NCBI GenBank assembly: GCA_047284725.1
Contig: JBJBEO010000001.1
Span: 32,001 to 96,000, forward strand
Length of the DNA stretch: 64,000 bases
Source of the DNA: Synechococcus sp.
Lineage (GTDB): Bacteria > Cyanobacteriota > Cyanobacteriia > PCC-6307 > Cyanobiaceae
Reading direction: 5' to 3'
The notes under the pieces: model-generated
Database searches by the model: none
Told to the model about the DNA's origin: nothing
The model's input: only the letters and a program-made list of their open reading frames with translations
Translations under genes and position numbers: made by a program
Part shown: positions 2,461-64,000 of the stretch, in pieces
Position numbering within the stretch: the first letter of the stretch is position 1
Layout of the letters: each line of letters begins with the position of its first letter

Positions 2461-2461
2461 G

Positions 2462-5024: not shown

Positions 5025-5064
5025 TGCTGCTTGGCGTGATCCCCGCTTGTGAATGGCATCCCAC

Positions 5065-6072: not shown

Positions 6073-6142
6073 CCTGACCCGTGTCGGAGGCAGATGATAC
6101 CGGGCTCAATGCCTTCTCTGACCAGTGGCGATCGTCTTTTGC

Positions 6143-8766: not shown

Positions 8767-8884
8767 GGGGGCCAGTGGCTGGTGTCGGTCTGCAGTGTTG
8801 CCAGGTCTGGCCCTTGTGGCATGAACTGGTCAGAAAGCTTGCCCTTTTTGGATCAAGGTCTGGGTTGGTCCCAGATCGGTCAAC

Positions 8885-9538: not shown

Positions 9539-9689
9539 TCCGGTGCCCTCAGGCGTGCATCGCGGATTGCGGCGATCAACACAAACCAAAGCAGGCGAAG
9601 CTTGGCGATCGTTCCGGGCCGCCTCGCGAGCTCGGCATACTTTGCGCGGCCGCAGTCAGTTTTGATCCAGCGATGGATGGGCTGCTCAG

Positions 9690-10805: not shown

Positions 10806-10818
10806 GGGTTGGTTCCAT

Positions 10819-13336
<2,518 letters not shown>

Positions 13337-47795: not shown

Positions 47796-50700
47796 ATGTC
47801 GTTTGCAGATCCCTTTATCAAAAGGCCCGTCCTCACGAGTGTCTGCAGCATTGCTATTTTTATTGCCGGATTGGTTGTTGTCTCAGATCTGCCAATCGAA
47901 TTCGTGCCTGATGTTGCACCATCTCAGATCCGGATTTCTGCTGCTTTTCCTGGTGGTAATGCCAGCATCGTTGAGAAATCAGTGACGGATCAGCTGGAGG
48001 ATTTGCTTTCTGATACTCCAGGTGTTGATTATTTAGTATCAAATTCCACTGCAACTTCAAGTACGATACAGCTGTATTTAGAGCCAGGAATATCTGCAGA
48101 CACGGCTATGTTGGATGCGCAAAATCGCATTCAACAAGGGATTCAAAACCTGCCCCAGGCGACAAAGGATCAGGGTGTGAGTATTAGCCAGTCAACTGAC
48201 ACCACGCTCAGCAGCTATATGCTTACATCTGATCAAGGGCAATACAATTCGGCTTATCTGTCGTCGTTAATTGAGGGCAATCTAAAAAAACAGATTCAGC
48301 TGATTAATGGTGTTGGCACAGTCAGAATTTACCCTTCGGATTCCCGATTTCAGGTGTTTTTAGATCCTGATCTTCTGAAGTCCTACGATATTACAAGTGA
48401 AGAAGTTGCTCAGCGAATCCGATCACAAAATTTTCCCTCATCCGCTGGCAACGTCGGAGCATCCCTTCTCGGTGACGAAGCCTCCTACACGTATCCAGTC
48501 CTGGTGAAGGACGGTGGCTATATTCAGACCGTTGAGGAATTTGAAAATCTTGCGGTGAGAACGGCTCCTTCCGGAGCCCTGATCCGTGTGAAAGATATTG
48601 GCAAGGTTGAGTACATTGCAAGCCCGTCGGTCTCTCTGAAAACTCTGGATGGTTATCCAGCAAGCTTTATAGTCATCAATCAAAAATCAGGTAGTAATGC
48701 TGTGCAGGTGGCCAGCGATGTTGAGGAAGTGATTGCCGACTTTGAAAAAATTGCACCGCCTGGGATTCGAGTTTCACAGTTTGACGATAAAAAGTCCTTT
48801 GTGAATGAATCGATTGAAAACGTCTCCGACGCCCTCGGGCTGGCTGTCGTTTTGGTGTTGGTGACACTGTTGTTGTTTCTGAAAAATTGGCGAACAGTTC
48901 TGATCCCGGCTTTGGCTATTCCAGTGGCCATCGTGGGGACTTTTCTGTTCTTAGGCCTCTTTGGTTTCAGTCTGAACTTTCTCACTCTGACAGGTCTTGT
49001 TCTGGCGACAGGTTTAGTGGTTGATGATGCAATTCTTGTTGTTGAGTCGGTTTCTAAAAAGATCGAAGAGGGCATGCCCCCCAGGCAAGCTGCGTTGTCA
49101 ACAATGAATGAGCTTTCTGGTGCCGTTGTCTCAACATCACTTGTTTTAATCACGTTGTTTGTTCCAGTCACTTTGGTCGCTTCATCAGTTGGAAAAATTT
49201 ATCAGCAGTTTGCCATTACGATTATGGCTGCAATCGCAATTTCAACGTTTAATGCTTTAACATTTTCGCCAATGATGGCGGCCTTGATGCTCAGGTCGGG
49301 AAGTCAAATCAAACTATCTCGATGGCTGTCTGGCGCGGGTGGCTTGCTGACGGGTGCATTGTTTGGAGTGTTTACGCGTTCAAATTTTGGTGATTTGATT
49401 GTGCCAATTGCGATCGGTTTCTTTGGGGTTCTGGGGTTTTGTCTCGCCCAAGTGTTCCAGGTTTTTGAGTCCGGTTACACTGCTTTTGCGGTGAAATTTG
49501 CAGGTATTTCGAGTTTTTTGATTCGCAAAAATCGGCTTGTTACGGCTTGTTTGCTGCCAGCTTTCATCGTTACGATTGCTTTATTTGGTTCAATTCCTTC
49601 GGCTTTAATTCCCCAAGAAGACCAAAGTATTTTGACGGGTGGGACGCAGTTAGCCTCAGGTGCATCCCTCATGGAAACGGCCAAGGTTGCTGCCCAGGCA
49701 TCTTCTCTTTTGAGGCAAAAGCAGCAGTCGAAAGACTCTGCAATCAAGGATGCAGTGGTCATTGCAGGCCTTGGAGGTGCTGAACAATTGGGTTTTTATG
49801 CTTCGCTGAAGCCGCTTGAGGAGAGGCCCAATCCTTCGCAGGCTGCTGATGCACAGCAAAGAGCTCTCGGTGCGACCTTGTTGCCTCTCCCTACGGCACG
49901 CCCCGCATCTTTTTATCAGCCGCCAATGATCAATGTTGCGGCCAATACTCAGATTTCCATGTTGCTTGTTGACAAGAGCAACCGTGCATACACATTTGAA
50001 GAATTGAATGAATTTGCACGGCGCTTTCAAGAGTCGGCTCAGCGTGATCCTTTGATTGCCAGTATTTATACAATCTTTGCTCCGGATGCTCCTGCGTATG
50101 AGTTAACGGTCAATCGCTCGAAGCTTTCGTCTTTAGGTGTTGATTTCAATAAGGCGACGAGGGCATTGGCGGAGCTTGCCGGTGGCAGCAGGGTGAATCA
50201 AACCTCAATTCCTGGTGGTGTGAGAGATGTGCAACTGATTAGTGATTCAAGGGGAAGGCTCGACATCGATGATCTTCTGGATTACTCCGTGCGCTCAGCC
50301 AATGGCACTATGGTGAAAGTGAGGCAATTTACGGATGCTGAACTAATCAGTGCTCCTTCATCCATTGAGCATTTCAGCTTTAACCGCTCGGTTCGCTTCA
50401 TGATTCAGCCCGCACCTGGTGTCTCGCAGGGGCAGGTGATCGATCGCCTTGCTCAATTGTTCGCTGAGAATAACTTCAAGGATCTTGGCTATGCCTTTGA
50501 TGGTTTGGCCCGCACACAGGTTGAGTCTGGCGGGCAGGTCTTGATGCTGTTCGCCTTGGCTGGCCTGGCAGTGTTCTTTATTCTTTCGGCAACCTATGAG
50601 AGCTACATCACCGCCACGACAATTTTGCTCACAGCGCCTCTTGCCATCTTGGGAAGTCTGTTGTTTGTGAAAATGAGGGCAATGAATATCAATTTATTTT

Positions 50701-51062
50701 CACAAGTGGGATTGCTGATGCTGATTGGACTGGCGGCTAAAAACGCCATTCTTGTGGTGGAAATGGCGGATCAGGGCATGGCTCAAGGTTTGCAGGCAGC
50801 ACCAGCAGCGCTCCAGGCAGCTCAATCGAGACTGCGTCCGATCCTGATGACGTCCACGGCCTCTTTGGCTGGTTTCTTCCCTCTGGTGGTCGCAAGGAAT
50901 GCCGGAGCGAATGCGCAGCAATCGATCGGAACCGTTGTGTTCGGCGGTCTTCTCGTTGGAACGATCCTTTCCTTGGCTGTTGTTCCGTCTGTTTATGTGT
51001 TCATTAAAAATTGGGAGTCTCGTTGGTTCAACGCGCGTCGTGCCGCCAAGCCATCCTTGTGA
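47796..51062 (+). CDS. RND efflux permease (HAE1/AcrB family)
   Basis: FIKRPV, GLVVDDAILVVE, GLAAKNAILVVE, RLRPILMT proton-relay motifs. Confidence 0.95.
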   Translation: MSFADPFIKRPVLTSVCSIAIFIAGLVVVSDLPIEFVPDVAPSQIRISAAFPGGNASIVEKSVTDQLEDLLSDTPGVDYLVSNSTATSSTIQLYLEPGISADTAMLDAQNRIQQGIQNLPQATKDQGVSISQSTDTTLSSYMLTSDQGQYNSAYLSSLIEGNLKKQIQLINGVGTVRIYPSDSRFQVFLDPDLLKSYDITSEEVAQRIRSQNFPSSAGNVGASLLGDEASYTYPVLVKDGGYIQTVEEFENLAVRTAPSGALIRVKDIGKVEYIASPSVSLKTLDGYPASFIVINQKSGSNAVQVASDVEEVIADFEKIAPPGIRVSQFDDKKSFVNESIENVSDALGLAVVLVLVTLLLFLKNWRTVLIPALAIPVAIVGTFLFLGLFGFSLNFLTLTGLVLATGLVVDDAILVVESVSKKIEEGMPPRQAALSTMNELSGAVVSTSLVLITLFVPVTLVASSVGKIYQQFAITIMAAIAISTFNALTFSPMMAALMLRSGSQIKLSRWLSGAGGLLTGALFGVFTRSNFGDLIVPIAIGFFGVLGFCLAQVFQVFESGYTAFAVKFAGISSFLIRKNRLVTACLLPAFIVTIALFGSIPSALIPQEDQSILTGGTQLASGASLMETAKVAAQASSLLRQKQQSKDSAIKDAVVIAGLGGAEQLGFYASLKPLEERPNPSQAADAQQRALGATLLPLPTARPASFYQPPMINVAANTQISMLLVDKSNRAYTFEELNEFARRFQESAQRDPLIASIYTIFAPDAPAYELTVNRSKLSSLGVDFNKATRALAELAGGSRVNQTSIPGGVRDVQLISDSRGRLDIDDLLDYSVRSANGTMVKVRQFTDAELISAPSSIEHFSFNRSVRFMIQPAPGVSQGQVIDRLAQLFAENNFKDLGYAFDGLARTQVESGGQVLMLFALAGLAVFFILSATYESYITATTILLTAPLAILGSLLFVKMRAMNINLFSQVGLLMLIGLAAKNAILVVEMADQGMAQGLQAAPAALQAAQSRLRPILMTSTASLAGFFPLVVARNAGANAQQSIGTVVFGGLLVGTILSLAVVPSVYVFIKNWESRWFNARRAAKPSL

Positions 51063-51120
51063 ATGTGATGTTGGTTCAGTTGTCCTTGAACAGGTCTTGC
51101 TTTGTCTTGGAGGTGTCGCT

Positions 51121-53100
51121 TCAGCTTTGCAGGTAGGTGCTTTGATTCAGGCTTTTTTCAAGATGATCCATTAAACGCCTGGCTTCACTGATTCGCAGCT
51201 GTCCGCTGTGAATCGCTTTCTCGCTGGCGATGCGCAAGCGTTCCAGTAATGCATCGGGATCATGCTCCATCATTTCCAGCACATCGGCGTTGGTGTCGCC
51301 ACGAACAACATGATCAACCTGGTACTCCCCGCCTGGTGCCAGTCGGATATGTGCGGAATCGGTGCTGCCGAACAAGTTGTGGAGGTTGCCCATCACTTCT
51401 TGATAGGCACCACCGAGGAACATCCCGATCAGGTAGGGCTCATCGGGCCTGAGTGGATGAAGCTCGAGCAGGGGTTTGTTCTGACCGTCATGGATGAATC
51501 GGTTCAGCTTCCCATCGGAATCGCACGTTAAATCGGCGAAGTGACCGAGACGAGTGGGTTGTTCGTTGAGACGATGCAAGGGCATCAACGGGAAGAGTTG
51601 CTGGATGGCCCAGGTGTCCGGGGCGGAGCGGAAAATGGACAGGTTGGCGTAGTAGGTCTCCGCCAAAACAGCCGGAAGTGTTTTCAGGTCATCGGGCAGT
51701 TTCGTCGCATCAGGGAGACGGTTGAGCAATGCCCTGGCGCACGCCCATGTGAGTTGTTCCGCCATGCTGCGTTCTTTCAAACTCAGATAGCCGAGTCGGA
51801 ATGCGGCTAAGGCATCCTCTTTGAACTTGAGTGCATCGTTCCAGGCTTCTTGCAGACGAGATGGTTCCGCCGACGCGTCCGTGGCTAAGCCTTCGATGCC
51901 TTGCAGGGTTTCGCGCAGATTGCGAACGATCAGGGGCTCATCCTGTTCAAGTCTGGGCGTGGGTTGCTGTAAGCCTCCGCAGCCGAGCACGTTGAACACC
52001 AGCACGGAGAAATGGCTGGCAATCGCACGACCGCTTTCGCTCACTAACGTTGGTACGGGAACGTTTCTTGACTCGCACCCTTCTTTCACCGTCGCAACCA
52101 CGTCGTTGGCGTAGTTCTGCAGGGAGTAGTTGGTGGAAGCGGCTGTGGCGGTACGGCTGCCGTCGTAGTCGATACCCAGGCCGCCACCCACATCGAGGTA
52201 GCCCATGGGGGCTCCGAGGTTGTGAAGCTCCACGTAGATGCGGGAGGCTTCCTGGAGCGCGTCTTTGACGACCGCAATGTCATTGATCTGGCTGCCCACA
52301 TGGAAATGGAGCAGACGCAGTTCGCTGAGAAGATCAGCCTCGTGGAGGGCTTCCACGGTGGAGAGGATCTCCGGCACTGGAAGGCCGAATTTGGCTTTGT
52401 CGCCCACAGAGCTGCCCCACCGCCCTGTGCTGCGGCTGGCCAGACGAGCGCGGATCCCGATCAGAGGCGCAGCCCCAAGGTCCCGGCTGGCTTCAATGAT
52501 CCTTGGTACCTCATCGGCCTGCTCGATCACCACCACAGGGCGTCGTCCCAGGCGCCTGGCAAGGATGGCGGTTTCGATGTAGCGCCGGTCTTTGTAGCCG
52601 TTGCAGATCAATAGCGCCTCAGGGTCGTCGATCAGTGACAGAGCAATCAGCAGTTCGGCTTTACTGCCTGCTTCCAAGCCGAAATGCCAGCGCTTGCCGC
52701 AGCTCACCAGCTCTTCCACCACGTGACGCTGCTGGTTGCACTTCACCGGGAAGACGCCCTGATAACGGCCGCTGTAGCCGTACTGGGTGATGGCCCGTTC
52801 GAAAGCGGCGTGGAGGCTTTCCAGTCGGTCTTCGAGAATGTCGTCGAAGCGGATCAGCAGGGGAAGGTTGAGGTTCCGGCCTTGGAGCCCTTCCACCAGT
52901 TGCATCAGATCAAGGCTGCCGCCGCGCTCTCCCCGTGGTTGAACACTCACATGGCCGCGCAGATTGATGGAGAAGTAAGGGTTCCCCCAGCGCTCGAGGC
53001 CATACAACTCAGCGCTGTCTTGAATGCTCCAGGCCGGCTTCGCAGCAGCAGATCTGGCGTTCGCCTCATGGCCCAGAGGGTTGGGGTTGGCGAGCACCAT
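51121..53100 (-). CDS. speA: Biosynthetic arginine decarboxylase
   Basis: FPVKCNQ, GLEAGSK, HFHVGSQ, DVGGGLG, SESGRA, DLTCDSDG, GAYQE. Confidence 0.96.
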   Translation of the reverse strand: MVLANPNPLGHEANARSAAAKPAWSIQDSAELYGLERWGNPYFSINLRGHVSVQPRGERGGSLDLMQLVEGLQGRNLNLPLLIRFDDILEDRLESLHAAFERAITQYGYSGRYQGVFPVKCNQQRHVVEELVSCGKRWHFGLEAGSKAELLIALSLIDDPEALLICNGYKDRRYIETAILARRLGRRPVVVIEQADEVPRIIEASRDLGAAPLIGIRARLASRSTGRWGSSVGDKAKFGLPVPEILSTVEALHEADLLSELRLLHFHVGSQINDIAVVKDALQEASRIYVELHNLGAPMGYLDVGGGLGIDYDGSRTATAASTNYSLQNYANDVVATVKEGCESRNVPVPTLVSESGRAIASHFSVLVFNVLGCGGLQQPTPRLEQDEPLIVRNLRETLQGIEGLATDASAEPSRLQEAWNDALKFKEDALAAFRLGYLSLKERSMAEQLTWACARALLNRLPDATKLPDDLKTLPAVLAETYYANLSIFRSAPDTWAIQQLFPLMPLHRLNEQPTRLGHFADLTCDSDGKLNRFIHDGQNKPLLELHPLRPDEPYLIGMFLGGAYQEVMGNLHNLFGSTDSAHIRLAPGGEYQVDHVVRGDTNADVLEMMEHDPDALLERLRIASEKAIHSGQLRISEARRLMDHLEKSLNQSTYLQS

Positions 53101-53239
53101 GCGGTCTGACGTGCTGAGGACGTTGCGGCAAATCTAAGGAGCATGAATCCATGGAGCAGCAACACGTGCGGCGGTGCTGTGCTTGCCAAGGGGGAGGCTG
53201 AGCACGGAGCATGGCCCGGTTATCAGTGATGTCTTCTTC

Positions 53240-53698
53240 ATGGCCACCGAACGCACGTTCATCGCCATCAAGCCCGATGGTGTCCAGCGCGGGCTGGTGG
53301 GCGAGATCCTCGGCCGCTTTGAGCGCAAGGGTTTCAAGCTGGTGGGCTTGAAGCAGATCACCCCCAGCCGGGAGCTGGCTGAGCAGCACTACGGCGTGCA
53401 CAAGGAGCGTCCTTTCTTTGCGGGCCTGGTTGAGTTCATCACCTCTGGCCCTGTGGTGGCCATGGTCTGGGAGGGCGATGGCGTCATTGCCAGTGCCCGC
53501 AAACTGATCGGAGCCACCAAGCCTCTCGAGGCTGAGCCCGGAACGATTCGTGGTGATCTGGCGGTCAACATCGGTCGCAACGTGATTCACGGCTCCGATG
53601 CCGCCGAGACCGCCCAGTTCGAGATCGGTCTCTGGTTCCAGCCGTCTGAGCTCAATGCGTGGACCCCTTCCGATCAGGGCTGGCGCGTCGAGGCTTGA
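53240..53698 (+). CDS. ndk: Nucleoside diphosphate kinase
   Basis: [28 protein letters not shown]. Confidence 0.98.
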
Positions 53699-53739
53699 TC
53701 AGCCCCTGGGTGTCCCCGCTTGTTGTCAGGTGACACCTC

Positions 53740-53773
53740 ACAACCGCCAAGGCAGACCTGCCTTGGCGGTTGT
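53740..53773. terminator. Perfect inverted repeat between convergent ndk and thiO (bidirectional terminator)
   Basis: ACAACCGCCAAGGCAG-AC-CTGCCTTGGCGGTTGT (16-bp arms). Confidence 0.75.
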
Positions 53774-53774
53774 T

Positions 53775-54896
53775 TCATTTGAAGCGATCCCAGCTGAAGC
53801 TGGGGAGCAGAGCCATGAGGTCGCGGCGTGGGCTGCACCCGCTGACCAGATCGCCGATCAACTCTGCTGTGATGGCTGCCAGCAGGACGCCATTGCGATG
53901 GTGACCGCAGGCGAGCAGTAAGCCCTGAATGGGCCCCATCCCCAGCAGGGGAGCCTCGTCCGGGGTGCAGGGGCGAAATCCCCACCAGCGTTCCATCGGC
54001 GGCCAGTTGACGGCGTCGGGCAGGAGTGAGTGAATGCCGTGGTGAAGCGTGGACTGCCCCTGTGGTGTCAGGCCTTCTCGGAAGCCTGCATCCCGTTCGG
54101 AGGTGGCGCCGACCACCACCAGACCGTCTTCCCTGGGGACGAGGTAGGTGCCAGGGCCGAAAATGATGCGCCGCAGGGCTCCGCGGGGGGTCTGCAGCGA
54201 CAGCATTTGTCCTTTGACTGGGAAGACAGGGAGCTCTGGGAGCAGCTGAGCGCTCCAGGCGCCGCTGCAGAGCACCGCATGGCGTCCCTTCAGCGTCGCT
54301 TCCCTCCCCTCGGAGTCGCGGGTCCGAACGCCTAGGAAAAAGCCGTTGTTTTGCAACAGCTCGAGCACTTCAACCCCTTCCTGGAATTGGACACCTCGGT
54401 CGACGCAGGCACTTTCCAGGGCTCGCATCAGTTGTCGGCGGTTGTCGATCTGACCGTCCTGGGCGAACAGCAGACCTGCTTGCCACTGCGGGGCGAGGCC
54501 CTGCACTTCCTGGTCCAGTTGTCGGCGGTTGAGGGCCTCGCCAAAGGCGGCTGTCGGATAGGCATCCCGTTCCTCCGCGTTGTGCAGCGGCACCACGATT
54601 CCTGTGGAGCGCAGGCCGCAGGGGAGGCCGCTGTCGGCTTCAATCTGAGCCACCCAGCTTGGAATGCGCCCCAGGCTGAGTTGCCCGAGGCGTAGAAGAT
54701 CCCCGCTCAGGCCTTCGGCATGGGGCGCCAGCATGCCGGCCGCCACGAAGCCGGCGGCTTCGCTACGGCGCCTGCTGAGCACGGTCGTCGCCATGCCCCG
54801 CCGTGCCAGTTGGTGGGCGATCGCCAGCCCCATCAGACCACCGCCGAGGATGAACACCGGGTCTTGAGCAGAGCTGCTGGCAGCGGTCATGGGCAA
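53775..54896 (-). CDS. thiO: Glycine oxidase (thiamine biosynthesis)
   Basis: GGGLMG, AAGMLAP, PVKGQM, YLVPR, GFRP, GHHRNGVLLA. Confidence 0.92.
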   Translation of the reverse strand: MPMTAASSSAQDPVFILGGGLMGLAIAHQLARRGMATTVLSRRRSEAAGFVAAGMLAPHAEGLSGDLLRLGQLSLGRIPSWVAQIEADSGLPCGLRSTGIVVPLHNAEERDAYPTAAFGEALNRRQLDQEVQGLAPQWQAGLLFAQDGQIDNRRQLMRALESACVDRGVQFQEGVEVLELLQNNGFFLGVRTRDSEGREATLKGRHAVLCSGAWSAQLLPELPVFPVKGQMLSLQTPRGALRRIIFGPGTYLVPREDGLVVVGATSERDAGFREGLTPQGQSTLHHGIHSLLPDAVNWPPMERWWGFRPCTPDEAPLLGMGPIQGLLLACGHHRNGVLLAAITAELIGDLVSGCSPRRDLMALLPSFSWDRFK

Positions 54897-54989
54897 TGGG
54901 GGGCCGTTGTGCGCACCCAGACAGCTTCCCAGCCTGTCCTGTGGCGCCTTTCCATAGGATTGCCGTGCTCTGAACGATCCTCACAGCGG

Positions 54990-56474
54990 ATGGCGGCACC
55001 TGCAGTAACGGACCAAGCCTGGGAAGCCGTGATTGGTCTGGAGACCCATGTGCAGCTGGGGACCAACAGCAAGATCTTCACCGCTGCCTCCACCACCTTT
55101 GGTGATGACCCCAACACCCATATCGATCCGGTGGTGTGTGGGTTGCCCGGCACGCTGCCGGTGCTGAACAAGAAGGTGCTCGAGTATGCAGTGAAGGCTG
55201 CGATGGCCTTGAACCTCAACATCGCCGAACACAGCAAGTTCGACCGCAAGCAGTACTTCTACCCCGATCTGCCGAAGAACTACCAGATCTCTCAATACGA
55301 CGAACCGATCGCGGAAGAGGGTTGGATCGAGGTTGAGGTGGCTGAGAAAGGGAAAGACACGTATCTGAAAACGATCGGCATCGAGCGCCTGCACATGGAG
55401 GAGGACGCCGGCAAGCTTGTACACGCGGGCAGTGACCGTCTGGCCGGCTCCACTCACTCACTGGTGGATTACAACCGAGCCGGCGTGGCGCTGGCTGAGA
55501 TTGTCAGCAAGCCCGATCTGCGCACCGGCCGCGAAGCGGCGGAATATGCCTCGGAAATCCGCCGGATCATGCGTTATCTGGGGGTGAGTGACGGAAACAT
55601 GCAGGAGGGCTCCCTGCGTTGCGACGTGAACATCTCCGTGCGTCGGGGACCGGATGCGCCCTTCGGCACGAAGGTGGAGATCAAGAACATGAACTCCTTC
55701 TCGGCGATTCAGAAAGCCTGCGACTACGAGATTCAGCGTCAGATCAAGGCCTATGAAAGCGGTGAGGCCATCGTGCAGGAAACCCGTCTGTGGGATGAGG
55801 GCAAGCAGCTCACCAAGAGCATGCGCAGCAAGGAGGGAGCCAGCGATTACCGCTATTTCCCTGATCCTGATCTCGGTCCTATTGAGGTGAGTGCGGCCCT
55901 GCGTGAGGGCTGGCGGGCTGAACTGCCTGAACTCCCGGCCGCCAAGCGCCACCGTTATGCCGAGGAGTTCGGTCTCTCGCAGTACGACGCCCGGGTTCTC
56001 ACCGACGAACGGCCGATGGCCGACTACTTCGAGGCGGTTGTGGGCGCTGGCGCTGACGCCAAGCTTGCGGCGAACTGGATCACCGGCGACATCGCTGCCC
56101 ACGTGAACAGCAACCGCCTCAGCTATGCCGAACTGCCCTTCCGGCCTGAGCAGTTGGCCGAGATGGTGAAGCTGATCGATGGCGGCAAGATCAGCGGCAA
56201 GATCGCCAAGGAGATCCTGCCGGAGCTGCTCGACAAAGGCGGCTCACCCAAGGCGATCGTGGACGAGCGTGGTCTCGGCATGATCAGTGACCCTGCCGCG
56301 ATCACGGCCATCGTGGATGAGTTGCTGGCGGCCCATCCCGCTGAGGTGGAAGCGTTCCGGGGCGGCAAGAACAAATTGCAGGGCTTCTTCGTGGGTCAGC
56401 TGATGAAACAGACCGGCGGCAAGGCCGACCCTAAATTGGCGAACCAGATCCTCAGTCAGAAGCTCAAAGGTTGA
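54990..56474 (+). CDS. gatB: Asp-tRNA(Asn)/Glu-tRNA(Gln) amidotransferase subunit B
   Basis: IGLETHVQL, RKQYFYPDLPKNYQISQ, HMEEDAGK, DYRYFPDPDL. Confidence 0.98.
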   Translation: MAAPAVTDQAWEAVIGLETHVQLGTNSKIFTAASTTFGDDPNTHIDPVVCGLPGTLPVLNKKVLEYAVKAAMALNLNIAEHSKFDRKQYFYPDLPKNYQISQYDEPIAEEGWIEVEVAEKGKDTYLKTIGIERLHMEEDAGKLVHAGSDRLAGSTHSLVDYNRAGVALAEIVSKPDLRTGREAAEYASEIRRIMRYLGVSDGNMQEGSLRCDVNISVRRGPDAPFGTKVEIKNMNSFSAIQKACDYEIQRQIKAYESGEAIVQETRLWDEGKQLTKSMRSKEGASDYRYFPDPDLGPIEVSAALREGWRAELPELPAAKRHRYAEEFGLSQYDARVLTDERPMADYFEAVVGAGADAKLAANWITGDIAAHVNSNRLSYAELPFRPEQLAEMVKLIDGGKISGKIAKEILPELLDKGGSPKAIVDERGLGMISDPAAITAIVDELLAAHPAEVEAFRGGKNKLQGFFVGQLMKQTGGKADPKLANQILSQKLKG

Positions 56475-56520
56475 CCTGGCTCCTCTCATCCAGGAGGGTC
56501 TCCAGGCCTTGAAGCCATGA

Positions 56521-57168
56521 TCAGCCGAGCTGGTCCAGCTGCTCGCGGATCTGGGTTTGCCAGCGCTCAGGCTGGCTCCGGTTATCGAGCACCAGATCCG
56601 CAAGCTTGCATTTCTCGCTCAATGGCCATTGGGCCTGGATGCGTGCGCGCGCTGCAGCGTCATCCAATCCGTCTCTCTGTTGAAGACGCTCGAGCTGTTG
56701 CTCCGGGGTGCAGTTCACCACCCAGATTTCAGAGCAGAGCCCTGAAAGGCCAGCCTCGAAGAGGAGGGGAATCATCAGTACCACCGCCTCAGCCTGGCGG
56801 TGCTGCCTGAGTTCCTGGTCGAAGCGCTCACGCACCAATGGGTGCACCAGTTGCTCCAGCCATCGCCGTTCGCTGGGGTTGTTGAACACGATTTGGCCTA
56901 AGGCTCGGCGGTTGATGCTTCGGTTGACAGGGCTTGCCGTTGCGTTCTGGCTGGTTGTGTCGGCTTCGACCTGGGCCCCGTAGCGATCCAGGACCGTCTC
57001 GGAGGCTGGGCTGCCTGGCGCCAGTGCGTCGTGGGCATAACGATCCGCATCCAAGACCGGTAATTGGTGGACGGCCAGGTATCGGCCCACGCTGCTTTTG
57101 CCGCTGGCAATGCCGCCCGTGAGCCCGATACGCCGCTGCGCTCCTTGATGATGGGGCGTTGCGCTCAC
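56521..57168 (-). CDS. coaE: Dephospho-CoA kinase
   Basis: IGLTGGIASGKS, DAD, HPLVR, IPLLFE. Confidence 0.95.
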   Translation of the reverse strand: MSATPHHQGAQRRIGLTGGIASGKSSVGRYLAVHQLPVLDADRYAHDALAPGSPASETVLDRYGAQVEADTTSQNATASPVNRSINRRALGQIVFNNPSERRWLEQLVHPLVRERFDQELRQHRQAEAVVLMIPLLFEAGLSGLCSEIWVVNCTPEQQLERLQQRDGLDDAAARARIQAQWPLSEKCKLADLVLDNRSQPERWQTQIREQLDQLG

Positions 57169-57272
57169 GGGCTTCTCAAGGGCATCTGGGCTCAGTCTGT
57201 CGTGGTGGCACTACGGCAGGCAGATGGATGGCTTTTGAATAGGAGGTGTGGTTCGTCTTGCCTTCAGCTTCG

Positions 57273-58508
57273 ATGGCGCAATCTGTTCGCTGGACTCCCA
57301 TCGGTGGGGGCATCACCGCTCCTGACGGCTTTCAGGCGGAGGGGCTGACCGCAGGGCTCAAGGCCTCAGGGAAACCCGATTTATCGCTCCTGCTCGCTCC
57401 TGAAGGCGCTGTGTGCGCCGGCACGTTCACCACATCGGTGGTGAGGGCGGCGTGTGTTGATCTCTGTGCAGACCGGTTGCGGGACAGCGGCGGGCTGGCG
57501 CGGGCTGTGGTGACCAATTCCGGACAGGCCAATGCCTGCACGGGCGATCGAGGCCTCATCGACAGCCTGCGGGCGACGCAGGCCGTGGCGGATCGTCTGG
57601 GCCTCCCACCGGAAGCGGTGTTGATCTGTTCCACAGGAGTGATTGGTGTGCCGATTGCCATGGACACCCTTCTGGCGGCTGTGGATCCATTGGTGGAGGG
57701 CCTTGCAACGGACCGAGGTGCTGCAGCTGCAGAGGCCATCCTCACCACTGATCTGGTTGACAAACAGATCGCCCTGGAGGCCGAGTTGGCAGGGCGCAGG
57801 GTCCGTGTGGCCGGGATGGCCAAGGGATCGGGAATGATTCATCCCGACATGGCCACGATGTTGGGCTACCTCACCTGTGATGTCGGCGTGCCTGCGGAGG
57901 TGTGGCAAGCGATGGTGAGCCGGGCGGTGAATCGCTCGTTCAACGCGATCACCGTCGACGGTGATACCAGCACGAACGACACGTTTCTGGCTTTTGCGGC
58001 AGGCGATCCTCTACCAGACACGGCGTTGGAAGGGCTTGAGCAAGGGGTCACGCTTGTGGCTCAACATCTGGCGCGGGCGATCGCCCGCGATGGTGAGGGT
58101 GCAACCTGTTTGATTGAGGTGGACGTGGAGGGGACGGCCAGTGAGTCCGATGCGTTGCAGATGGCACGCACTGTGTGTGGTTCCTCCTTGGTGAAGACCG
58201 CTGTTCATGGTCATGACCCCAACTGGGGGCGCATTGTTGCGGCGGCCGGTCGCGCCGGTGTGCCCTTTGACCCTGCTTCCGTTGCCCTGTGGCTTGGCAC
58301 CCATCAGCTGATGGCCTCAGGCGAGCCCATGGTGTTTGACCGATCCGCCGCCTCGGCGTACCTGCAGGCTTGCGTTGAAGGGGCCTATCTCGAGAATGAC
58401 TGCGTTTGTATTCGTCTCAAGGTGGGTGATGGCCCTGGTCGGGCCAAAGCCTGGGGATGTGATCTTTCGGATCAATATGTGCGCATCAACGCCGATTACA
58501 CCACTTGA
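57273..58508 (+). CDS. argJ: Bifunctional glutamate N-acetyltransferase / amino-acid acetyltransferase
   Basis: NSGQANA, KGSGMIHPDMATML, DTSTND, DGEGAT, DPNWGRI, GCDLS..YVRINADYTT. Confidence 0.97.
   Translation: MAQSVRWTPIGGGITAPDGFQAEGLTAGLKASGKPDLSLLLAPEGAVCAGTFTTSVVRAACVDLCADRLRDSGGLARAVVTNSGQANACTGDRGLIDSLRATQAVADRLGLPPEAVLICSTGVIGVPIAMDTLLAAVDPLVEGLATDRGAAAAEAILTTDLVDKQIALEAELAGRRVRVAGMAKGSGMIHPDMATMLGYLTCDVGVPAEVWQAMVSRAVNRSFNAITVDGDTSTNDTFLAFAAGDPLPDTALEGLEQGVTLVAQHLARAIARDGEGATCLIEVDVEGTASESDALQMARTVCGSSLVKTAVHGHDPNWGRIVAAAGRAGVPFDPASVALWLGTHQLMASGEPMVFDRSAASAYLQACVEGAYLENDCVCIRLKVGDGPGRAKAWGCDLSDQYVRINADYTT
58484..58501 (+). repeat. Left att-like direct repeat (inside the argJ 3' end)
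   Basis: CATCAACGCCGATTACAC; 17/18 identical to 63009-63026. Confidence 0.85.
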
Positions 58509-59642
58509 GGTCCACGTCGTCAGTAGAGCGTTGTGGTTGCGAGAGGGTTGAGAGATTGTCAGAGGGCACATGTAGGGCTGATTGTTCCAGGTGCCTAACG
58601 TAATTTGAGGTATTACGATTCAGTTGATTGGCACAAATGGGTGCAGTGAATGCTCTTTTCAAGGGCTAAGTAGCATGAAAATGCCAGATAGGGTGCTTCC
58701 CTTTTCTTGAGAGGAGGTTGGTTTAATGCTTTGCCTTGATAAGGCAGATAAGAATCGTAAGGAGTGTGGCTGCGGGCACGGATGCGTCAGCGTGAAAGAC
58801 CTTGATGTTTGTGAGATTGGTATCTTTGCGGTGATGCTTATCTTGTGATTGCTCAGCTGCTTTCTGCGCTCTCTCCCAAGGATGTTGATCGGTTTGATTG
58901 CATGTTTCATTAAGCAATGTGCTGATGTTGATCCAGCATCTGTTGTCGATGACGACGGCCACTCCAGGTTGATTGGTCACACACCTGCTGATCTAAAATG
59001 GTGCTGCAAAGGTAAATACAATTACGTAATTCTTGAAGAGTAGAGAAGATGCAAGTGGCTGATCTTCTAGCACTTGTCGAGTTGTCTATGAAGCAGGAAA
59101 ACCAGGAAACTCTGGATCTTGTTGATGACGATGCCGCCAACTTGCACGTCGGTAGATTTCCGATCTTTTTCTGGGCACTGCTTAAGCCACAGGTTGCTGG
59201 TGATCTCCCGATGGGTGGTCGCCGATGACTGTCCAGGTAAGTGTCAAGCAGCAATCACTGATCAAGCAGACCATCCAGAGGATGCCATTGATCACGATCT
59301 CCAACACTTCAAGAAGCATCGGTATCAGATCCGCTGACAACTCAGCGGACAAGAGCACCAACACGGCAGAAAGCGACCTGCCCACAACAGCAGCAGACGA
59401 CTACCTGACGCCTATTGAGAGGTGTCACGGCGCTGCTCTGATCTAACGCCTTCGGCAACGTCAGCAAGAGTCGTTCGAGCGGGGCATCGTTAAGGCAAGA
59501 CGCCTCTGCAACGCAGGTCGCTGAATGAGTTTTCGACGCTTCCGCTCGGTGACGAAGGACTCACTGAATCGCTGGGAGGGGAATGGGGCAGTGAAGCGAG
59601 GAGAGAAGTCACCGTAAAATCGGTACAGGTGAGAGATGCGTT

Positions 59643-60653
59643 GTGAATCAAGAGGAGATGACGCAGCAGGTCCAGGCTGCAGTGCAGGCATATCAGGGCA
59701 AGGATCTTGATCGTGCTGAGGCAATGTTTAAGCAGATTCTTTCTGTTAACGCAAAAGAGCCGACTTCCTTACATCTTCTTGGCTGTATTTATAGTGAGCG
59801 TGGGCAACTGCAGCAGGCTGTTGAGTTCATCCAGGCATCGATTCGAGAAGATGATAGCAACCCAATGCCAATCCTCGATTTGGGGAAGATTCTTTTTATT
59901 GCTGGACAGCATGAGAATGCAGCGGCTGTCTTCCAGGAGTCATTGAAGAGAAACCAGGAGATCCCTGAGGCTTGGTTTTGCTTGGGCAATGCCCTTAAGG
60001 AGATTGTGAAAACAGAAGAAGCCAAACAGGCATATCGACATGCGTTGACATTGAATCCAGCTCATATTGGAGCCGCATCGAACTTGGGATGTCTGCTCGC
60101 CGATGATGGTGAATTGGCAGAAGCCGAGGAATTGCTTTTAAAAGCCTTGGAGCATGCTCCAAATAATGTGTATCTTAGAATTAATTATGGTAAGTTGTTG
60201 TCTGAGAAGGATCAGCATATTACAGCGATTGAGCAGTATCGTTTTGCGCTGTCGCTTGCTCCTCGTTCGTCTGAGCTGCACTACAATTTTGCTGACTCAT
60301 TGAATGAAGAGGGGGAGGTAGAGGAGGCGATCGCAAGTTATCGGAAAGCGATCGAGCTGAAGCCAGATTTTGCAGATGCGTATTTGAATTTGGGTAATGT
60401 GTTGAAAGAAGAGGGAGAGGTAGAGGAAGCGATCGTAAGTTATCGGAAAGCAATCGAACTGAGGCCAGATTTTGCAGATGCGTATCTGAATTTGGATAAT
60501 GTGTTGAAGGAAGAGGGGAAAGCGGTTGAGGCGCGCGAGCTGTTGAAATATGCCTATCAAGCTACGCCTTCTTTAGCAAGCAATCTTGCATTGGTTGCGA
60601 GGATTTCTTCTATGGGACAAGATATTGCTGAATCCATTTTCAACCCTCATTAG
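59643..60653 (+). CDS. Tetratricopeptide repeat protein
   Basis: Serial 34-aa TPR units (e.g. ADAYLNLGNVLKEEGEVEEAIVSYRKAIELRPDF); no catalytic domain seen. Confidence 0.9.
   Translation: MNQEEMTQQVQAAVQAYQGKDLDRAEAMFKQILSVNAKEPTSLHLLGCIYSERGQLQQAVEFIQASIREDDSNPMPILDLGKILFIAGQHENAAAVFQESLKRNQEIPEAWFCLGNALKEIVKTEEAKQAYRHALTLNPAHIGAASNLGCLLADDGELAEAEELLLKALEHAPNNVYLRINYGKLLSEKDQHITAIEQYRFALSLAPRSSELHYNFADSLNEEGEVEEAIASYRKAIELKPDFADAYLNLGNVLKEEGEVEEAIVSYRKAIELRPDFADAYLNLDNVLKEEGKAVEARELLKYAYQATPSLASNLALVARISSMGQDIAESIFNPH
60306..60518 (+). repeat. 102-bp near-identical tandem repeat (TPR unit duplication)
   Basis: Units 60306-60407 and 60408-60509, plus the start of a third (GAAGAGGGG). Confidence 0.9.
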
Positions 60654-61666
60654 GCATTGTGTGACGAGGTCTCTATCAAGGCTATTTCCATATCAATTGA
60701 CTTGATAAGAGCCTTTGTTGTGTCATTTAAGTGGACGCTTAATTGGCTTTTGAGTTTATTTCTTTGGGCTATGTTGGCTTGCTGTAGTGTTTGTATTATG
60801 CTTGATGTCGTGCTCTCGCTAATTCCATGCTTTTGGGTAATTGAACAGAAAAAAGCCACGGGAAGTTTCCTCGAAGTTGAGCCTAAAGGCAGCGCTGGGA
60901 TTGTAAGAGTATTTTGTTTGAGTGATATCTTTTTGTCCGTTGATTCGATTCCTTCTTGGCCGCCTTCTATTCTTATTGTTGGCCCTCTATCGCCTATCTT
61001 GATCTCTGCGGGAAGTGAATATGCGAAGAATTCATGACTTGCAAAGCCATAACTAAAAAACATGTCCATGGGGCTTGTTTTGAGTCTGTATGCATGGAGA
61101 ATTTCATTGGTTGTGCATTCTGTTGGATCGTTTGGTGTTTCTGCTCCAATTCTTGATACTTTGAAGGGGCTTGCGAATGGGCTGTGGTTGACGAGCTCCC
61201 AGATCGGTGCCAAGGCAGATTGATTTTTATATCTTACGTGCCTTGATTCTATAAATCTTTGCAGCGAAATCTGCAGGCTTGGCTTGGACATGAAGGGATC
61301 GTAAGTCCATAGCTTGTTTTCATTAAGGGAGATTTTCACTTCTTCGGGTATTTGATTCATTTCTCTGAGAAACTTTGTTGCCTCTTCTTCTCCGGATTCT
61401 CCCCAGGAAAAGTTTTGATAGTAAGTTTCTATAAACTCTCTTGCTTCTGGCGTGTGGTCGGACTCTGCTTTAAGCCGAAATTCTCCGGAAGTCAGGATGA
61501 CGTCGTCCACTTTTGCCAAAAGATGTGGTGGGCAAAGGATTCGGGGCTTGTCGTTGTTGCCTTCCCTGAATAATCCTCTGCCGTTGTCGCCATCTCGACA
61601 GATCAGATTGTCAACAATTCCGCCTAGCTTGATGAATTCATTTTTGAAATAATCCCAATTGCTCAT
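60650..61666 (-). CDS. Putative SET-domain protein methyltransferase (Rubisco-LSMT/SETD3-like)
   Basis: NGRGLF near the N-terminus, LAPIWELVNHS, then EILHAY...MFFSYGF; start ATG 61666 (MSNWDYF); AT-rich. Confidence 0.65.
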   Translation of the reverse strand: MSNWDYFKNEFIKLGGIVDNLICRDGDNGRGLFREGNNDKPRILCPPHLLAKVDDVILTSGEFRLKAESDHTPEAREFIETYYQNFSWGESGEEEATKFLREMNQIPEEVKISLNENKLWTYDPFMSKPSLQISLQRFIESRHVRYKNQSALAPIWELVNHSPFASPFKVSRIGAETPNDPTECTTNEILHAYRLKTSPMDMFFSYGFASHEFFAYSLPAEIKIGDRGPTIRIEGGQEGIESTDKKISLKQNTLTIPALPLGSTSRKLPVAFFCSITQKHGISESTTSSIIQTLQQANIAQRNKLKSQLSVHLNDTTKALIKSIDMEIALIETSSHNA

Positions 61667-61727
61667 CTTGTAATGCGTGCCTGCCTGGTTTGTCTGAGAG
61701 CTTATGTGAAATCGATGCCAACCTTGC

Positions 61728-62074
61728 TTGGTTGTCGTCACTTTGGCGCCTCGGGCGATCGGCTCTACTCTCCTCGGCAGTCAGGCATCCACGTCCGTAC
61801 CTTTGATGGTCTGATCCACGCTCGTTCTCTCGGGAAGATGGCAGCACTGGTCGTGGTACTACTCATGAGTCTTGCGAGGTTGAGACGGAGCTGATCAGGG
61901 AAAGGACGCTGGATTTTATTGCTCATCGCAAGAGCACTGGCGGATCCCTTGGGGGACGTCCCAGGACCAGTTAGCCAAGAAAAGGTCTGGTGCTTCCCTA
62001 CGGACGTCTTGTGACTCTTACAGAGTGATCCGAGAGAAGACAGGCTTGGTCTCGCCACCATCAGAAGGATCCTG
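61728..62074 (+). pseudogene. Serine recombinase (resolvase/invertase) relic
   Basis: Across frameshifts: LVVVTL-RLGRS, GIHVRTFDGLI, LGKMAALVV.LL.SLA-EVETELIRERT, GGSLGGRP, DSYRVIREKTG-GLATIRRIL (HTH). Internal stop; catalytic-Ser N-terminus absent. Confidence 0.8.
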
Positions 62075-62096
62075 TGGCGTCGGAGGCAGTGACCAT

Positions 62097-62914
62097 TTAG
62101 GTGTCTCCTATCCAGGTTCCCTCCATCCAGTCATTGCCGATGGCTGTCTTCAGGCCTATGCGTTCTGTGGAGAGTTGTCAGTGGCATCCCACGCTCCAAG
62201 ACAAGCGTGATGAAGGTGTGGCTGAAGGAAGACCAGGGGAGAGTTTTCCTGAGTGGTTGTCGATCTTCCTGAGGTTGTTGAAGTCGCCTTCAGGCCACTG
62301 AGCAAGTCCTGCTTCGACCATCGCCTCGAAGTGACCATCTCTTCAAAGGTGATCGCTCAGGGGTTTCCCCGTCTTCCTGTTGGTGAAGAGCAGATTGCTC
62401 TTGGACGTGGGTTGCGTGTTCTTTCTCGGTTGACGACGGTGCGCCACGACTGGTGCTGAGAACTCATGCCAACGACCTGTCTTGGTGTTTTCCGCTGCCA
62501 CCTCGATCGACACCACACATTTTGGTCTTCAGTGCTGAGGGTTGGGTTGGCACTGACGTGTGACCACCTCATCTGACGTCGAGATCCGCATCGTGAGCTC
62601 GAGCATTTGCCTGGGCTCCAGCTGTTGCCTCGCCCGTGCCAACTGCTGATGCCTTTGCCCTTGTTGGGACCCCTGGAGATGGGGTGAAATCCCAAGGGTT
62701 TGCCGTCCTTATTGAATCTGCTGACGCCCTTGCTCCAAGACAGACCTGCTGGTGTCGAACCAGGGATGAACCGATTGGGTTTCTTCAGTGAGAAGCGATG
62801 CCTCTTGCCTCTCTTCTTATTCAGGAAGTCAAGACACCACTTGCCGTGACGCCGCCCATCTCTAAAGACATCAGCGTTGTGAGCACGCCCTCCTTGGAGG
62901 TCGCACCGATTCAC
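62097..62914 (-). pseudogene. Tyrosine recombinase / phage-integrase relic
   Basis: Across frameshifts: QMRWSHV, IEVAAENTKTGRW, LLFTNRKTGKPLS, WSSFSHTFITLVLERGMPL (degenerate YSFRHT box). Internal stop and apparent deletions. Confidence 0.75.
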
Positions 62915-63008
62915 AGCCTTCGTGTTGGCAGCGGCGCTTTTGCTGATACCTCTGAAGTATCGACCTGGAGGACATTGTCTCCAGCACTAGGAAACCTAGA
63001 TACGTATC

Positions 63009-63026
63009 CATCAACGTCGATTACAC
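63009..63026 (+). repeat. Right att-like direct repeat (displaced copy of the argJ 3' end)
   Basis: CATCAACGTCGATTACAC; context reads YVSINVDYTPW versus argJ YVRINADYTT*. Confidence 0.85.
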
Positions 63027-63078
63027 GCCCTGGAAATCACGAAATCCGCCAGGGCAAACCATCAGCAGAGCTGTCAAG

Positions 63079-63768
63079 ATGGCTGCGCTGTTCGATCCCG
63101 TCGCTGTACCCGTGGAGAACCAGCCCCAAGTCGAACACAAGACGAAGCGACGGCCCCAGTTCTGGATCGGTCCGGTGGTGGCCGGTAGTTGTTTCGCTCT
63201 CGGTTTTGGGGTGACGCAGCGATTCTTGGCACTCCAGGGGGGGGAGGCGCCGACGGCTCAGCAAACCTTTGGCGCCCAGCGTTTCCCTGGGCATTCGCTT
63301 GAAAGTCTCACAACGGCTCCTGCAGACACGGAGCGACCTCTGATTGCGGATGTGGCCGCCCGTGAGGCCGAGCTTGCCAAGACCCGACCACCGAAACCCA
63401 AGAAAACAATCGACAAGGCCCAGCAAGAGGCCGCGCGTCTGGCCGATGAGGCTCGACAGCGCCGCGAGAGCACCGCTGCCCTGAGAGCTCCTGTGGTGCC
63501 CGCAGCCGCGGTGACGGTGCTCGATGAGTCTGAGAGCTTGGCTGCGCCTGAACTGCCACCGCAGGCTGAGGAAGAGCAAGCACCGACTGAGATCCAGCCG
63601 CTGCCGGCAGAGCTCCCCTTCCCTGCCCAGGATCCAGTGGCCCCGTTGGCGGTCGAACCCCTTGACGAACCTCCCGTCACCCCCGCAGCACCCATCCCGG
63701 AGGTCACCTCTGCACCGATCCCGGTTCCCTTAGCCGTGCCCGCTCCAGCGGCCCCGCCTGCTCCCTGA
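63079..63768 (+). CDS. Hypothetical membrane-anchored Pro/Ala/Glu-rich protein
   Basis: FWIGPVVAGSCFALGFGVTQR TM, FPG.SL..L, low-complexity tail; GC returns to core level. Confidence 0.75.
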   Translation: MAALFDPVAVPVENQPQVEHKTKRRPQFWIGPVVAGSCFALGFGVTQRFLALQGGEAPTAQQTFGAQRFPGHSLESLTTAPADTERPLIADVAAREAELAKTRPPKPKKTIDKAQQEAARLADEARQRRESTAALRAPVVPAAAVTVLDESESLAAPELPPQAEEEQAPTEIQPLPAELPFPAQDPVAPLAVEPLDEPPVTPAAPIPEVTSAPIPVPLAVPAPAAPPAP

Positions 63769-63833
63769 CGCGCGCCCCTTCAGCATTCCTGGATTGAGAT
63801 CTGCCACAGTCGGGGCATTCCGGCAATGAGGTC

Positions 63834-64000
63834 ATGCCCTCTCCAGATGTGCTGCTCAAGGCCACGGTGAGTCGGTTGGCTGCGCGGCTGGGCCATGGCC
63901 TGGCAGAGGCTGCTGCGGAGGCCGCGGTTCTGGCACAGGATGCGCCGGAGCGGCTGCGGCGCGAATGGGACCTGTTTCAGGAAGAAGTGCAGGCTGAGGC
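63834..64000 (+). CDS. Conserved hypothetical protein (3'-truncated by window edge)
   Basis: MPSPDVLLKATVSRLAARLG...AQDAPERLRREWDLFQEEVQAE, open to the window end; GAGG upstream. Confidence 0.65.
   Translation, partial: MPSPDVLLKATVSRLAARLGHGLAEAAAEAAVLAQDAPERLRREWDLFQEEVQAE

Follow-up and report, generated by a model that had tools for sequence, protein, structure and literature searches.

We analyzed a stretch of 64,000 nucleotides from Synechococcus sp. (GenBank assembly GCA_047284725.1, contig JBJBEO010000001.1, positions 32,001 to 96,000 of the forward strand; this whole stretch is hereafter called the window), in which a low-GC insertion lies directly behind argJ. The insertion carries two convergent genes, one coding for a protein with the fold of the LSMT/SETD3/SETD6 class of SET-domain methyltransferases and the other for a protein with tetratricopeptide repeats (TPRs). 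As set out below, this pair is probably a methyltransferase cassette that was brought in by an integrative element. Coordinates of all features are listed in Table 1.

The SET gene lies in an open frame on the reverse strand (60650..61741) that would encode 363 aa from a GTG codon and 338 aa from the ATG at 61666. Since most full-length homologues start at the aligned Met, 61666 is the likely start. The first-pass annotation, which was made from the DNA letters and a list of open reading frames (ORFs), had described an intact AT-rich ORF of 338 aa with a series of SET-like motifs followed by a helical tail. This description was borne out in every detail: GRGLF (residues 29-33), LAPIWELVNHS (152-162), EILHAY (188-193) and MFFSYGF (202-208) occurred in the order given, and the structural model described below placed helices at residues 268-280, 284-309 and 315-335 of the tail. 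The GC content of the gene was 0.428, compared with 0.619 for the gatB-coaE-argJ region to its left and 0.606 for the whole window (coaE and argJ were identified by Pfam, and gatB by reading its translation).

To assign the protein to a class, both sequence and predicted structure were used. Searches with the single sequence were empty against Pfam (E<=1), against PDB by phmmer (E<=10) and against NCBIfam and PADLOC (E<=0.01), and a profile of 15 sequences had no match in PDB. With a profile of 63 sequences, pea Rubisco LSMT (2h21/1mlv) was matched at E 8.9e-4, pTAC14 at E 1.6e-3 and SETD6 at E 0.26, and with one of 123 sequences the corresponding values were 1.1e-3 for LSMT, 0.05 for pTAC14 and 0.048 for SETD6. 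In the profile alignments, the family motif SR-x-(I/V) corresponded to SRAF of LSMT and P-x-x-E-L-x-N-H to PMADLINH of LSMT and PAADILNH of SETD6, so that the NH pair coincided with theirs, and the downstream Tyr and YGF were aligned as well.

A first AlphaFold2 (AF2) model, built from 15 sequences, had a mean predicted local distance difference test score (pLDDT) of 72.4, with values below 50 at residues 160-165 and 182-215, and was kept out of the fold searches. The model built from 123 sequences reached a pLDDT of 95.0 and a predicted template-modelling score of 0.92, and no segment fell below 50. It contains the SET beta-fold core, with N-terminal strands that carry the GxG motif, strands that carry NH and the Tyr, and a C-terminal lobe of beta strands and helices (residues 214-335). 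The core is interrupted by a helical i-SET insert (helices 73-85, 88-104, 108-116 and 131-140, between strands at 17-65 and 144-152), which lies within the spacing of about 125 residues between GRG and NH. A Foldseek search of PDB with this model gave 36 matches at E<=1e-3 (best E 1.9e-7), and ranks 1-36 among the matches listed were all SETD3, LSMT, pTAC14/PAP7 or SETD6, followed by SMYD proteins at E>=4.5e-3. The structural alignments spanned residues 1 to 338 of the model and extended to chain residues 472 in SETD6, 481-484 in SETD3 and 451 in LSMT, thereby including the C-terminal lobe. In a language-model atlas, the nearest clusters were unnamed bacterial proteins (0.98), followed by SET, Ctm1 and Rubis-subs-bind clusters (0.92-0.93). 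The LSMT/SETD3/SETD6 class, which the first-pass annotation had proposed from motifs and had suggested checking with AlphaFold and Foldseek against Rubisco LSMT and SETD3/SETD6, is therefore supported by largely separate lines of evidence, including the profile matches to LSMT, pTAC14 and SETD6 and a structural ranking headed entirely by class members. These data support the view that the protein belongs structurally with this class and that by sequence it forms a family without annotation that the current Pfam models SET and Rubis-subs-bind do not cover.

The roles of the GxG strand, the NH motif and the catalytic Tyr in SET domains are well established. That of the catalytic Tyr312 in SETD3 is treated in PMC6684798. 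We counted the conservation of the corresponding residues in 123 sequences, 12 of them close relatives of the window protein and the others 20-35% identical to it. The residues for S-adenosylmethionine (SAM) binding and catalysis, that is, GxG, Arg142, Asn160-His161, Tyr193 and YGF, were kept in 89-99% of these relatives (counts in Table 1), and in the clade of the window protein none of them varied among the 15 sequences (or among 14, where one sequence does not reach the position). The first-pass annotation had made its reading depend on a SET fold and on conservation of GRG, NH and YGF; the fold was found in the model, and these motifs, as well as the Tyr, are conserved in homologues. It should also be noted that the only strictly invariant residue among the 123 relatives was Asn298 in a helix of the C-terminal lobe, whose conservation exceeded that of every catalytic residue.

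We then compared the predicted substrate pocket with those of solved enzymes. According to the parts of PMC6684798 that deal with it, the pocket of SETD3 is formed by Asn255 (Phe in SETD6 and LSMT), Trp273 (Ala in both), Ile310 (Asn in SETD6 and Ile in LSMT) and the conserved Tyr312. The profile alignments of LSMT and SETD6 gave exactly these residues at positions R+2, N-4 and Y-2, which validates the mapping of positions. By the same mapping, the pocket of the window protein would consist of Val144, Trp156, His191 and Tyr193, compared with Phe, Ala and Asn at the first three positions of SETD6. It shares with SETD3 the Trp four residues before the Asn of NH and the catalytic Tyr, and differs from it by Val144 in place of the histidine-orienting Asn255 and by His191 in place of Ile310. 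Trp156 was present in all 15 close relatives and in 30 of the 123 members of the wider family, in which Leu, Ile or Val was equally common. The position of SETD3 Asn255, at which the window protein has Val144 and not Asn, was occupied by Val (14) or Ile (1) in the 15 close relatives and mostly by Ile (53), Val (32) or Phe (19) in the 123. In the same parts of PMC6684798, SETD3 with the mutation N255V is described as having a kcat on His of 1.3 per hour, versus 22 per hour without it, and as being more active on Lys. Given this effect, the present pocket resembles that of SETD3 without its histidine-orienting Asn. As judged from these residues, lysine appears to be the likelier target, although the enzyme may also act on histidine, because of the Trp shared with SETD3, or on another residue.

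Table 1 Features of the insertion at argJ and conservation of key residues of the SET protein (positions in the window; counts among 123 relatives)
Feature	Position	Strand	Details
Whole insertion, decayed integrative element	58502..63026		4,525 bp, GC 0.49, between argJ and a conserved 229-aa gene starting at 63079
Left att-like direct repeat	58475..58501	+	Last codons of argJ
Right att-like direct repeat	63000..63026	+	22/27 bases identical to left repeat; displaced old 3' end of argJ
Left 1.1 kb of island, no recognisable gene	58510..59640		Short ORFs only
Convergent TPR-repeat partner gene	59643..60653	+	336 aa from GTG; ATG 5 codons later
3'-end overlap of SET and TPR genes	60650..60653		Four bases TTAG; TAG (TPR) and TAA (SET, other strand) share two
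SET-fold gene (probable methyltransferase), LSMT/SETD3/SETD6 structural class	60650..61666	-	338 aa plus TAA stop
GRG codons	61574-61582	-	G29 kept in 112/123, G31 in 121/123
Arg142 codon	61241-61243	-	Kept in 122/123
Val144 codon	61235-61237	-	
Trp156 codon	61199-61201	-	
Asn160-His161 codons	61184-61189	-	N160 kept in 122/123, H161 in 120/123
Glu188			Kept in 120/123
His191 codon	61094-61096	-	
Tyr193 codon	61088-61090	-	Kept in 121/123
YGF codons	61043-61051	-	G207 kept in 110/123, F208 in 116/123
Asn298 codon (invariant residue)	60773-60775	-	Kept in 123/123
Serine recombinase (resolvase) remnant	61757..62048	+	Residues 104-201 of a 213-aa intact relative; three frames, in-frame stop
Probable tyrosine recombinase remnant, weak evidence	62154..62523	-	E 0.12 and 4.0, collinear, same frame

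The convergent TPR gene, which the first-pass annotation had overlooked, probably tells most about the way in which the enzyme reaches its substrate. Of 57 other copies that could be assessed, 55 had, like the window copy, a TPR gene on the opposite strand at a distance of no more than 40 nt, and the 3' ends overlapped in 53 of these as well as in the window. Among 18 further copies surveyed in genomes of Synechococcus and Prochlorococcus, the next downstream gene was on the opposite strand in 17, and all 17 were TPR proteins by Pfam (one of them also bears a sulfotransferase domain); 15 of these pairs overlapped by 4-44 nt and two were separated by gaps of 19 and 39 nt. In metagenomes, 38 of 44 loci had a convergent TPR ORF that overlapped by 9-47 nt, most often 26 nt, and five others ran off the contig, had 6 nt of room or held truncated copies. 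Promoter-like and terminator-like sites around the SET-TPR pair were no commoner than in shuffled sequences.

The partners ranged from 172 to 579 aa and from about 3 to more than 12 repeats, and had clade-specific non-TPR tails in common; the C-terminal tail of the window TPR protein is of the type common to Synechococcus partners. Distances between SET proteins and distances between TPR tails (last 110 residues) were strongly correlated (Mantel r 0.90, reached by none of 2000 permutations), with the caveat that up to 15 of the 110 tail codons also overlap the enzyme gene. In a Synechococcus metagenome-assembled genome (MAG) with two pairs (L018), each partner grouped with the partner of its own enzyme's nearest relative. 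Both observations show that SET and TPR genes are inherited as a unit, which does not imply binding. The TPR genes are under purifying selection, the ratio of nonsynonymous to synonymous substitution rates (dN/dS) being 0.20-0.27. Moreover, in two long representatives (P0118 and P0104) a TPR array at the N terminus, a GT41 glycosyltransferase domain and a SET-like domain form one protein, and the fusion in P0118 retains GxG, NH, Tyr, YGF and the invariant Asn. From the near-obligate pairing and these fusions, we infer a joint action of TPR protein and enzyme, in which the TPR protein would most likely recruit the substrate. Within the window TPR gene, positions 60285-60488 are a tandem duplication of 102 nt (85% identical) that corresponds to one 34-residue TPR unit repeated, which suggests a recent change in repeat number.

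Two alternatives to a recruiting role in protein methylation can be weighed with the same data. In the first, the TPR protein would itself be the dedicated substrate, methylated on lysines, for example in a Lys-rich N-terminal tail. The tight co-divergence of enzyme and partner would fit this idea, as would the fact that 8 of 16 aligned partners begin with MxGFG and a lysine-rich linker. However, the window TPR protein and several others have no such start or tail, the variation in length and repeat number fits an adaptor better than a fixed substrate, and the TPR-GT41-SET fusions resemble the layout of OGT, in which TPRs recruit other proteins; we therefore regard a dedicated substrate as unlikely. 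In the second, the methyl group would go to a small molecule or to a group linked to a glycan. Free amino acids are substrates of some bacterial SET enzymes, and the island neighbours of the cassette elsewhere, namely genes for TPR-sulfotransferases, a TPR-class-I methyltransferase and glycosyltransferases, point to modification of surfaces or metabolites; an HNH nuclease, a DNA cytosine methylase and integrases are also encoded in these islands. On the other hand, TPR is a protein-binding module, and the fusions are to GT41, a family that includes protein glycosyltransferases such as OGT, which makes a non-protein substrate very unlikely in our opinion. A protein substrate recruited by the TPR partner is the reading that we prefer.

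The first-pass annotation had also suggested that the gene was acquired horizontally and remained intact while adjacent recombinases decayed. Acquisition is supported by comparison with relatives: of 29 argJ loci in congeners, 24 have a gene for a homologue of the 229-aa protein immediately after argJ (two of the other five are on contigs that end too early), and in the window the two are separated by an insertion with a copy of the argJ 3' end on either side, in the form of a direct repeat of 27 nt. This repeat, with copies spaced 4525 nt apart, is the longest dispersed repeat in 58400-63200. As for the recombinases, one remnant is firm and the other only probable. DNA at 61750-63050 matched two congeners at 66-67% identity, and one of these matches falls in an intact serine recombinase of 213 aa (PF00239, E 1.3e-32), which in turn found the window by tblastn at E 1.9e-19. 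The remnant was detected only through this DNA similarity; it does not include the catalytic N-terminal half, whose expected point of continuation is the 5' flank of the SET gene. The second stretch weakly resembles integrases of the same genome (E 0.12 and 4.0) and is 66% identical at the DNA level to a similarly broken stretch downstream of argJ in a congener (G019). Neither a Pfam scan of 12 stop-to-stop fragments from 61631-62986 nor genome-wide scans with PF00589 and PF00239 revealed a recombinase match within the island. No tRNA was found within 50000-64000, and a search of 58300-63300 against Rfam was empty at E<=0.1. The left 1.1 kb of the island had neither Pfam nor Rfam matches and, save for one match of 53 nt, no relative in 45 congeners.

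The locus thus shows the insertion relative to congeners, the flanking repeat that duplicates the 3' end of the target and the recombinase, as a remnant, that characterize an integrative island. A sibling element was found in G019 (L114, that is G019:C1:12000-30000, positions 1842-6444), where a 4.5-kb low-GC insertion occupies the same argJ site. There the end of argJ is repeated perfectly over 33 nt, and the insertion contains a resolvase gene and the integrase-like remnant known from the window. It carries other cargo, without a SET gene. On this basis, the window island belongs to a small family of elements directed at the argJ 3' end, with the SET-TPR pair as cargo. The cargo of the sibling includes an ORF of 233 aa (4088-4789), whose motifs resemble, by eye, those of a class-I SAM methyltransferase.

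Further analysis of the occurrence of the SET family showed that it is sizeable and maintained by selection. A word-indexed search identified 14 close homologues (49-92% identity), every one from metagenome sources, and a profile search of 1.84 billion cluster representatives gave 365 at E<=1e-3 and 258 at E<=1e-10, most of the 365 being 330-350 aa long. Comparisons of SET family pairs yielded dN/dS of 0.14-0.35, indicating purifying selection. These data bear on the idea that the frame is open by chance or that, in a decaying island, the gene is already dead, which the broken recombinase genes nearby and the 1.1 kb of island without recognisable genes might suggest. An intact frame of 338 aa, 365 representatives, purifying selection and a model with a pLDDT of 95 leave this idea next to no credence, and it is refuted as far as sequence evidence reaches.

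With regard to distribution, the clade of the window protein (49-92% identity) is known from metagenomes only, and all copies in the genomes fetched were at most 35% identical to it. Of 45 other genomes of the genus, 8 contained the family (one by a partial match). Among 300 others sampled from the whole phylum, 1 did so, and it belongs to the same taxonomic family; a narrower profile detected no member in the 24 other cyanobacterial genera that were sampled. Named genome matches comprised one Synechococcus MAG and eight Prochlorococcus single-cell genomes, and the nearest clusters in the language-model atlas hinted at Cyanobacteriota and Pseudomonadota as sources. Synechococcus copies had a GC content of 0.41-0.45 (0.62 in L016) within loci of 0.44-0.59. 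No relative was found by tblastn in 50,697 phage records, a scan of viral contigs gave no confirmed relative, and a BFVD fold search had no match at E<=1e-3, its best hits being giant-virus SET proteins at E 1.6e-3 and weaker. In full-text literature searches on bacterial and cyanobacterial SET domains, including TPR neighbourhoods, neither the family nor the pairing was found to have been described. The words cyanobacteria, LSMT, Rubisco and TPR are absent from a 2014 review of bacterial SET proteins (PMC3980110). A figure legend of PMC10734472 mentions a SET-domain gene in an island of HIMB59.

Taken together, it is quite likely that the window protein is a SAM-dependent methyltransferase of LSMT/SETD3/SETD6 architecture that forms a two-gene cassette with the TPR protein and travels as cargo of an integrative element at argJ; as predicted from sequence and model, its function would most likely be TPR-assisted methylation of protein lysines or, less likely, histidines. 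New in relation to the first-pass annotation are the near-universal convergent TPR partner, the TPR-GT41 fusions, the exact anatomy of the island and a pocket that mixes SETD3-like and lysine-like features.

Several observations speak against this reading. First, neither PF00856 (SET) nor PF09273 (Rubis-subs-bind) matched the SET protein at E<=1, neither of the two was among the families listed (25 of 29) in a Pfam scan of 63 relatives at E<=1, and none of the listed families matched more than two members, and PF00856 had no match in the whole genome at E<=10. PF00856 is a diagnostic model, not a structural feature, and the family is too diverged for it. Second, the link to known SET enzymes by sequence is marginal (E ~1e-3) and covers the C-terminal half of the SET core only, and the pseudoknot and the geometry of the pocket are deduced from alignments to solved SET enzymes, not from coordinates. 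Third, pTAC14, one of the closest structural matches, serves as a subunit of the plastid RNA polymerase in solved structures, so that an LSMT-type fold does not prove catalysis. Fourth, P0104 has Asp at the position of the catalytic Tyr, and the first copy in P0032 has NN instead of NH. Finally, the pairing is not without exceptions: the partner-type OR​F of the eighteenth genome copy (L031) ends 967 nt downstream, one intact metagenome copy (L098) has no TPR partner, and, since convergent genes cannot be co-transcribed, the usual operon argument does not apply. The motif losses in particular would fit a SET-fold protein without catalysis that acts as a structural or regulatory subunit like pTAC14/PAP7, perhaps in a complex with the TPR protein. 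We consider such a scaffold quite improbable for the window gene, in view of the invariance of every SAM-binding and catalytic residue in the protein and its close clade and of their retention across the wider family, which would be hard to explain without catalysis.

For an active enzyme, the following mechanism could be proposed. The SET core, split by the i-SET insert, is followed by the lobe that forms the substrate cleft in known enzymes. SAM would be held by the GxG strand, Arg142 and Asn160-His161, and the pore for methyl transfer would be lined by Tyr193 and the YGF segment. The target side chain, most likely a protein lysine and possibly a histidine, would enter the pocket of Val144, Trp156, His191 and Tyr193, with the convergently encoded TPR protein acting as the adaptor that recruits the substrate or, less likely, as the substrate itself. 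The 4.5-kb element that carries the cassette inserted at the 3' end of argJ and lost its recombinases later.

Comparison with known systems showed how far the likeness extends. SETD3 (human actin His73 N3-methyltransferase) has the same order of SET core, i-SET insert and C-terminal lobe. It is larger (594 aa in full, with solved chains of 465-484 residues, versus 338 aa) and only 13-15% identical in structural alignments, whereas the window protein is bacterial, island-borne and paired with a TPR protein. SETD6 (human RelA Lys310 methyltransferase) was matched by the profile over NH, Tyr and YGF; the window protein is shorter and, as mentioned, outside the Pfam models. Pea Rubisco LSMT, the best profile match, shares SRxF, P..DL.NH, Tyr and YGF and has Ala where the window pocket has Trp156. 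Rubisco is universal in the 45 congeners and the cassette is present in eight of them, and nothing points to Rubisco as the target. The profile match to pTAC14/PAP7 included the region of the N-terminal GxG strand; this protein is a stoichiometric polymerase subunit in solved complexes, and no polymerase link was seen for the window protein. SMYD1-3 also have a split SET domain and a TPR-like module, which is fused in SMYD and encoded by a separate gene (rarely fused) here, and their MYND zinc finger is absent from the 338-aa sequence (no Cys/His-rich insert and no Pfam match). Legionella LegAS4/RomA and Chlamydia NUE, examples of known bacterial SET proteins, are pathogen effectors that methylate host histones, and they have no LSMT-type C-terminal lobe, whereas the present family occurs in free-living marine phototrophs.

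The LSMT/SETD3/SETD6 class is known from eukaryotes, where it methylates abundant non-histone proteins (Rubisco, actin and RelA), and its members in yeast methylate ribosomal proteins, EF1A and cytochrome c. A more far-reaching interpretation, to which we assign a rather low probability, is that the SET-TPR pair is a self-contained, mobile cassette for targeted protein methylation, in which the variable TPR array picks an abundant host or phage protein and which confers an accessory trait under phage or niche selection, such as altered susceptibility to cyanophages. Such selection would explain the sporadic distribution, the location in islands and the multiple copies. In that case, the SETD3-type Trp might allow a non-canonical mark such as methyl-histidine, and the conserved overlap of the 3' ends would couple expression by antisense transcription.

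The results point to a compact bacterial branch of the class, with at least 365 sequence clusters and no Pfam or NCBIfam model, which resides in genomic islands of the most abundant phototrophs of the ocean (mainly marine Prochlorococcus and Synechococcus). An active enzyme would mean that these organisms have an additional system for the methylation of proteins; it would also provide a simple two-protein model for aiming this class of enzymes at substrates, and bear on the prokaryotic origin of the class. The Trp/Val pocket may also be viewed as a natural experiment on lysine versus histidine specificity.

Some additional observations were made on other copies of the cassette. The genome from which the window was taken has a second SET-like gene, 34% identical to the window copy (G000:C1:316437-317432, equivalent to L027:8435-9445), whose convergent TPR partner has 579 aa (L027:9420-11159) and is followed after 470 nt by an intact tyrosine integrase (L027:11629-12702; PF00589, E 6.9e-15). 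Two SET-TPR pairs within a few kb were found in the L018 MAG (5983-11765), the enzymes being 40% identical, and in L022 (2306-8684), where the gene of the second enzyme falls into two ORFs (6616-6981 and 7034-7612). P0032, a metagenome representative of 695 aa, is a tandem of two SET-like domains; the catalytic Tyr position of its first copy also looks substituted, and it may be a pair of enzyme and pseudo-enzyme in one chain. Finally, genes that fuse TPR arrays to a sulfotransferase or a class-I methyltransferase were present in cassette-bearing islands (L021:7905-9542, L022:4457-6328, L033:9690-11213 and L032:3929-6613), which suggests that islands of picocyanobacteria hold a broader range of modifying enzymes guided by TPRs.

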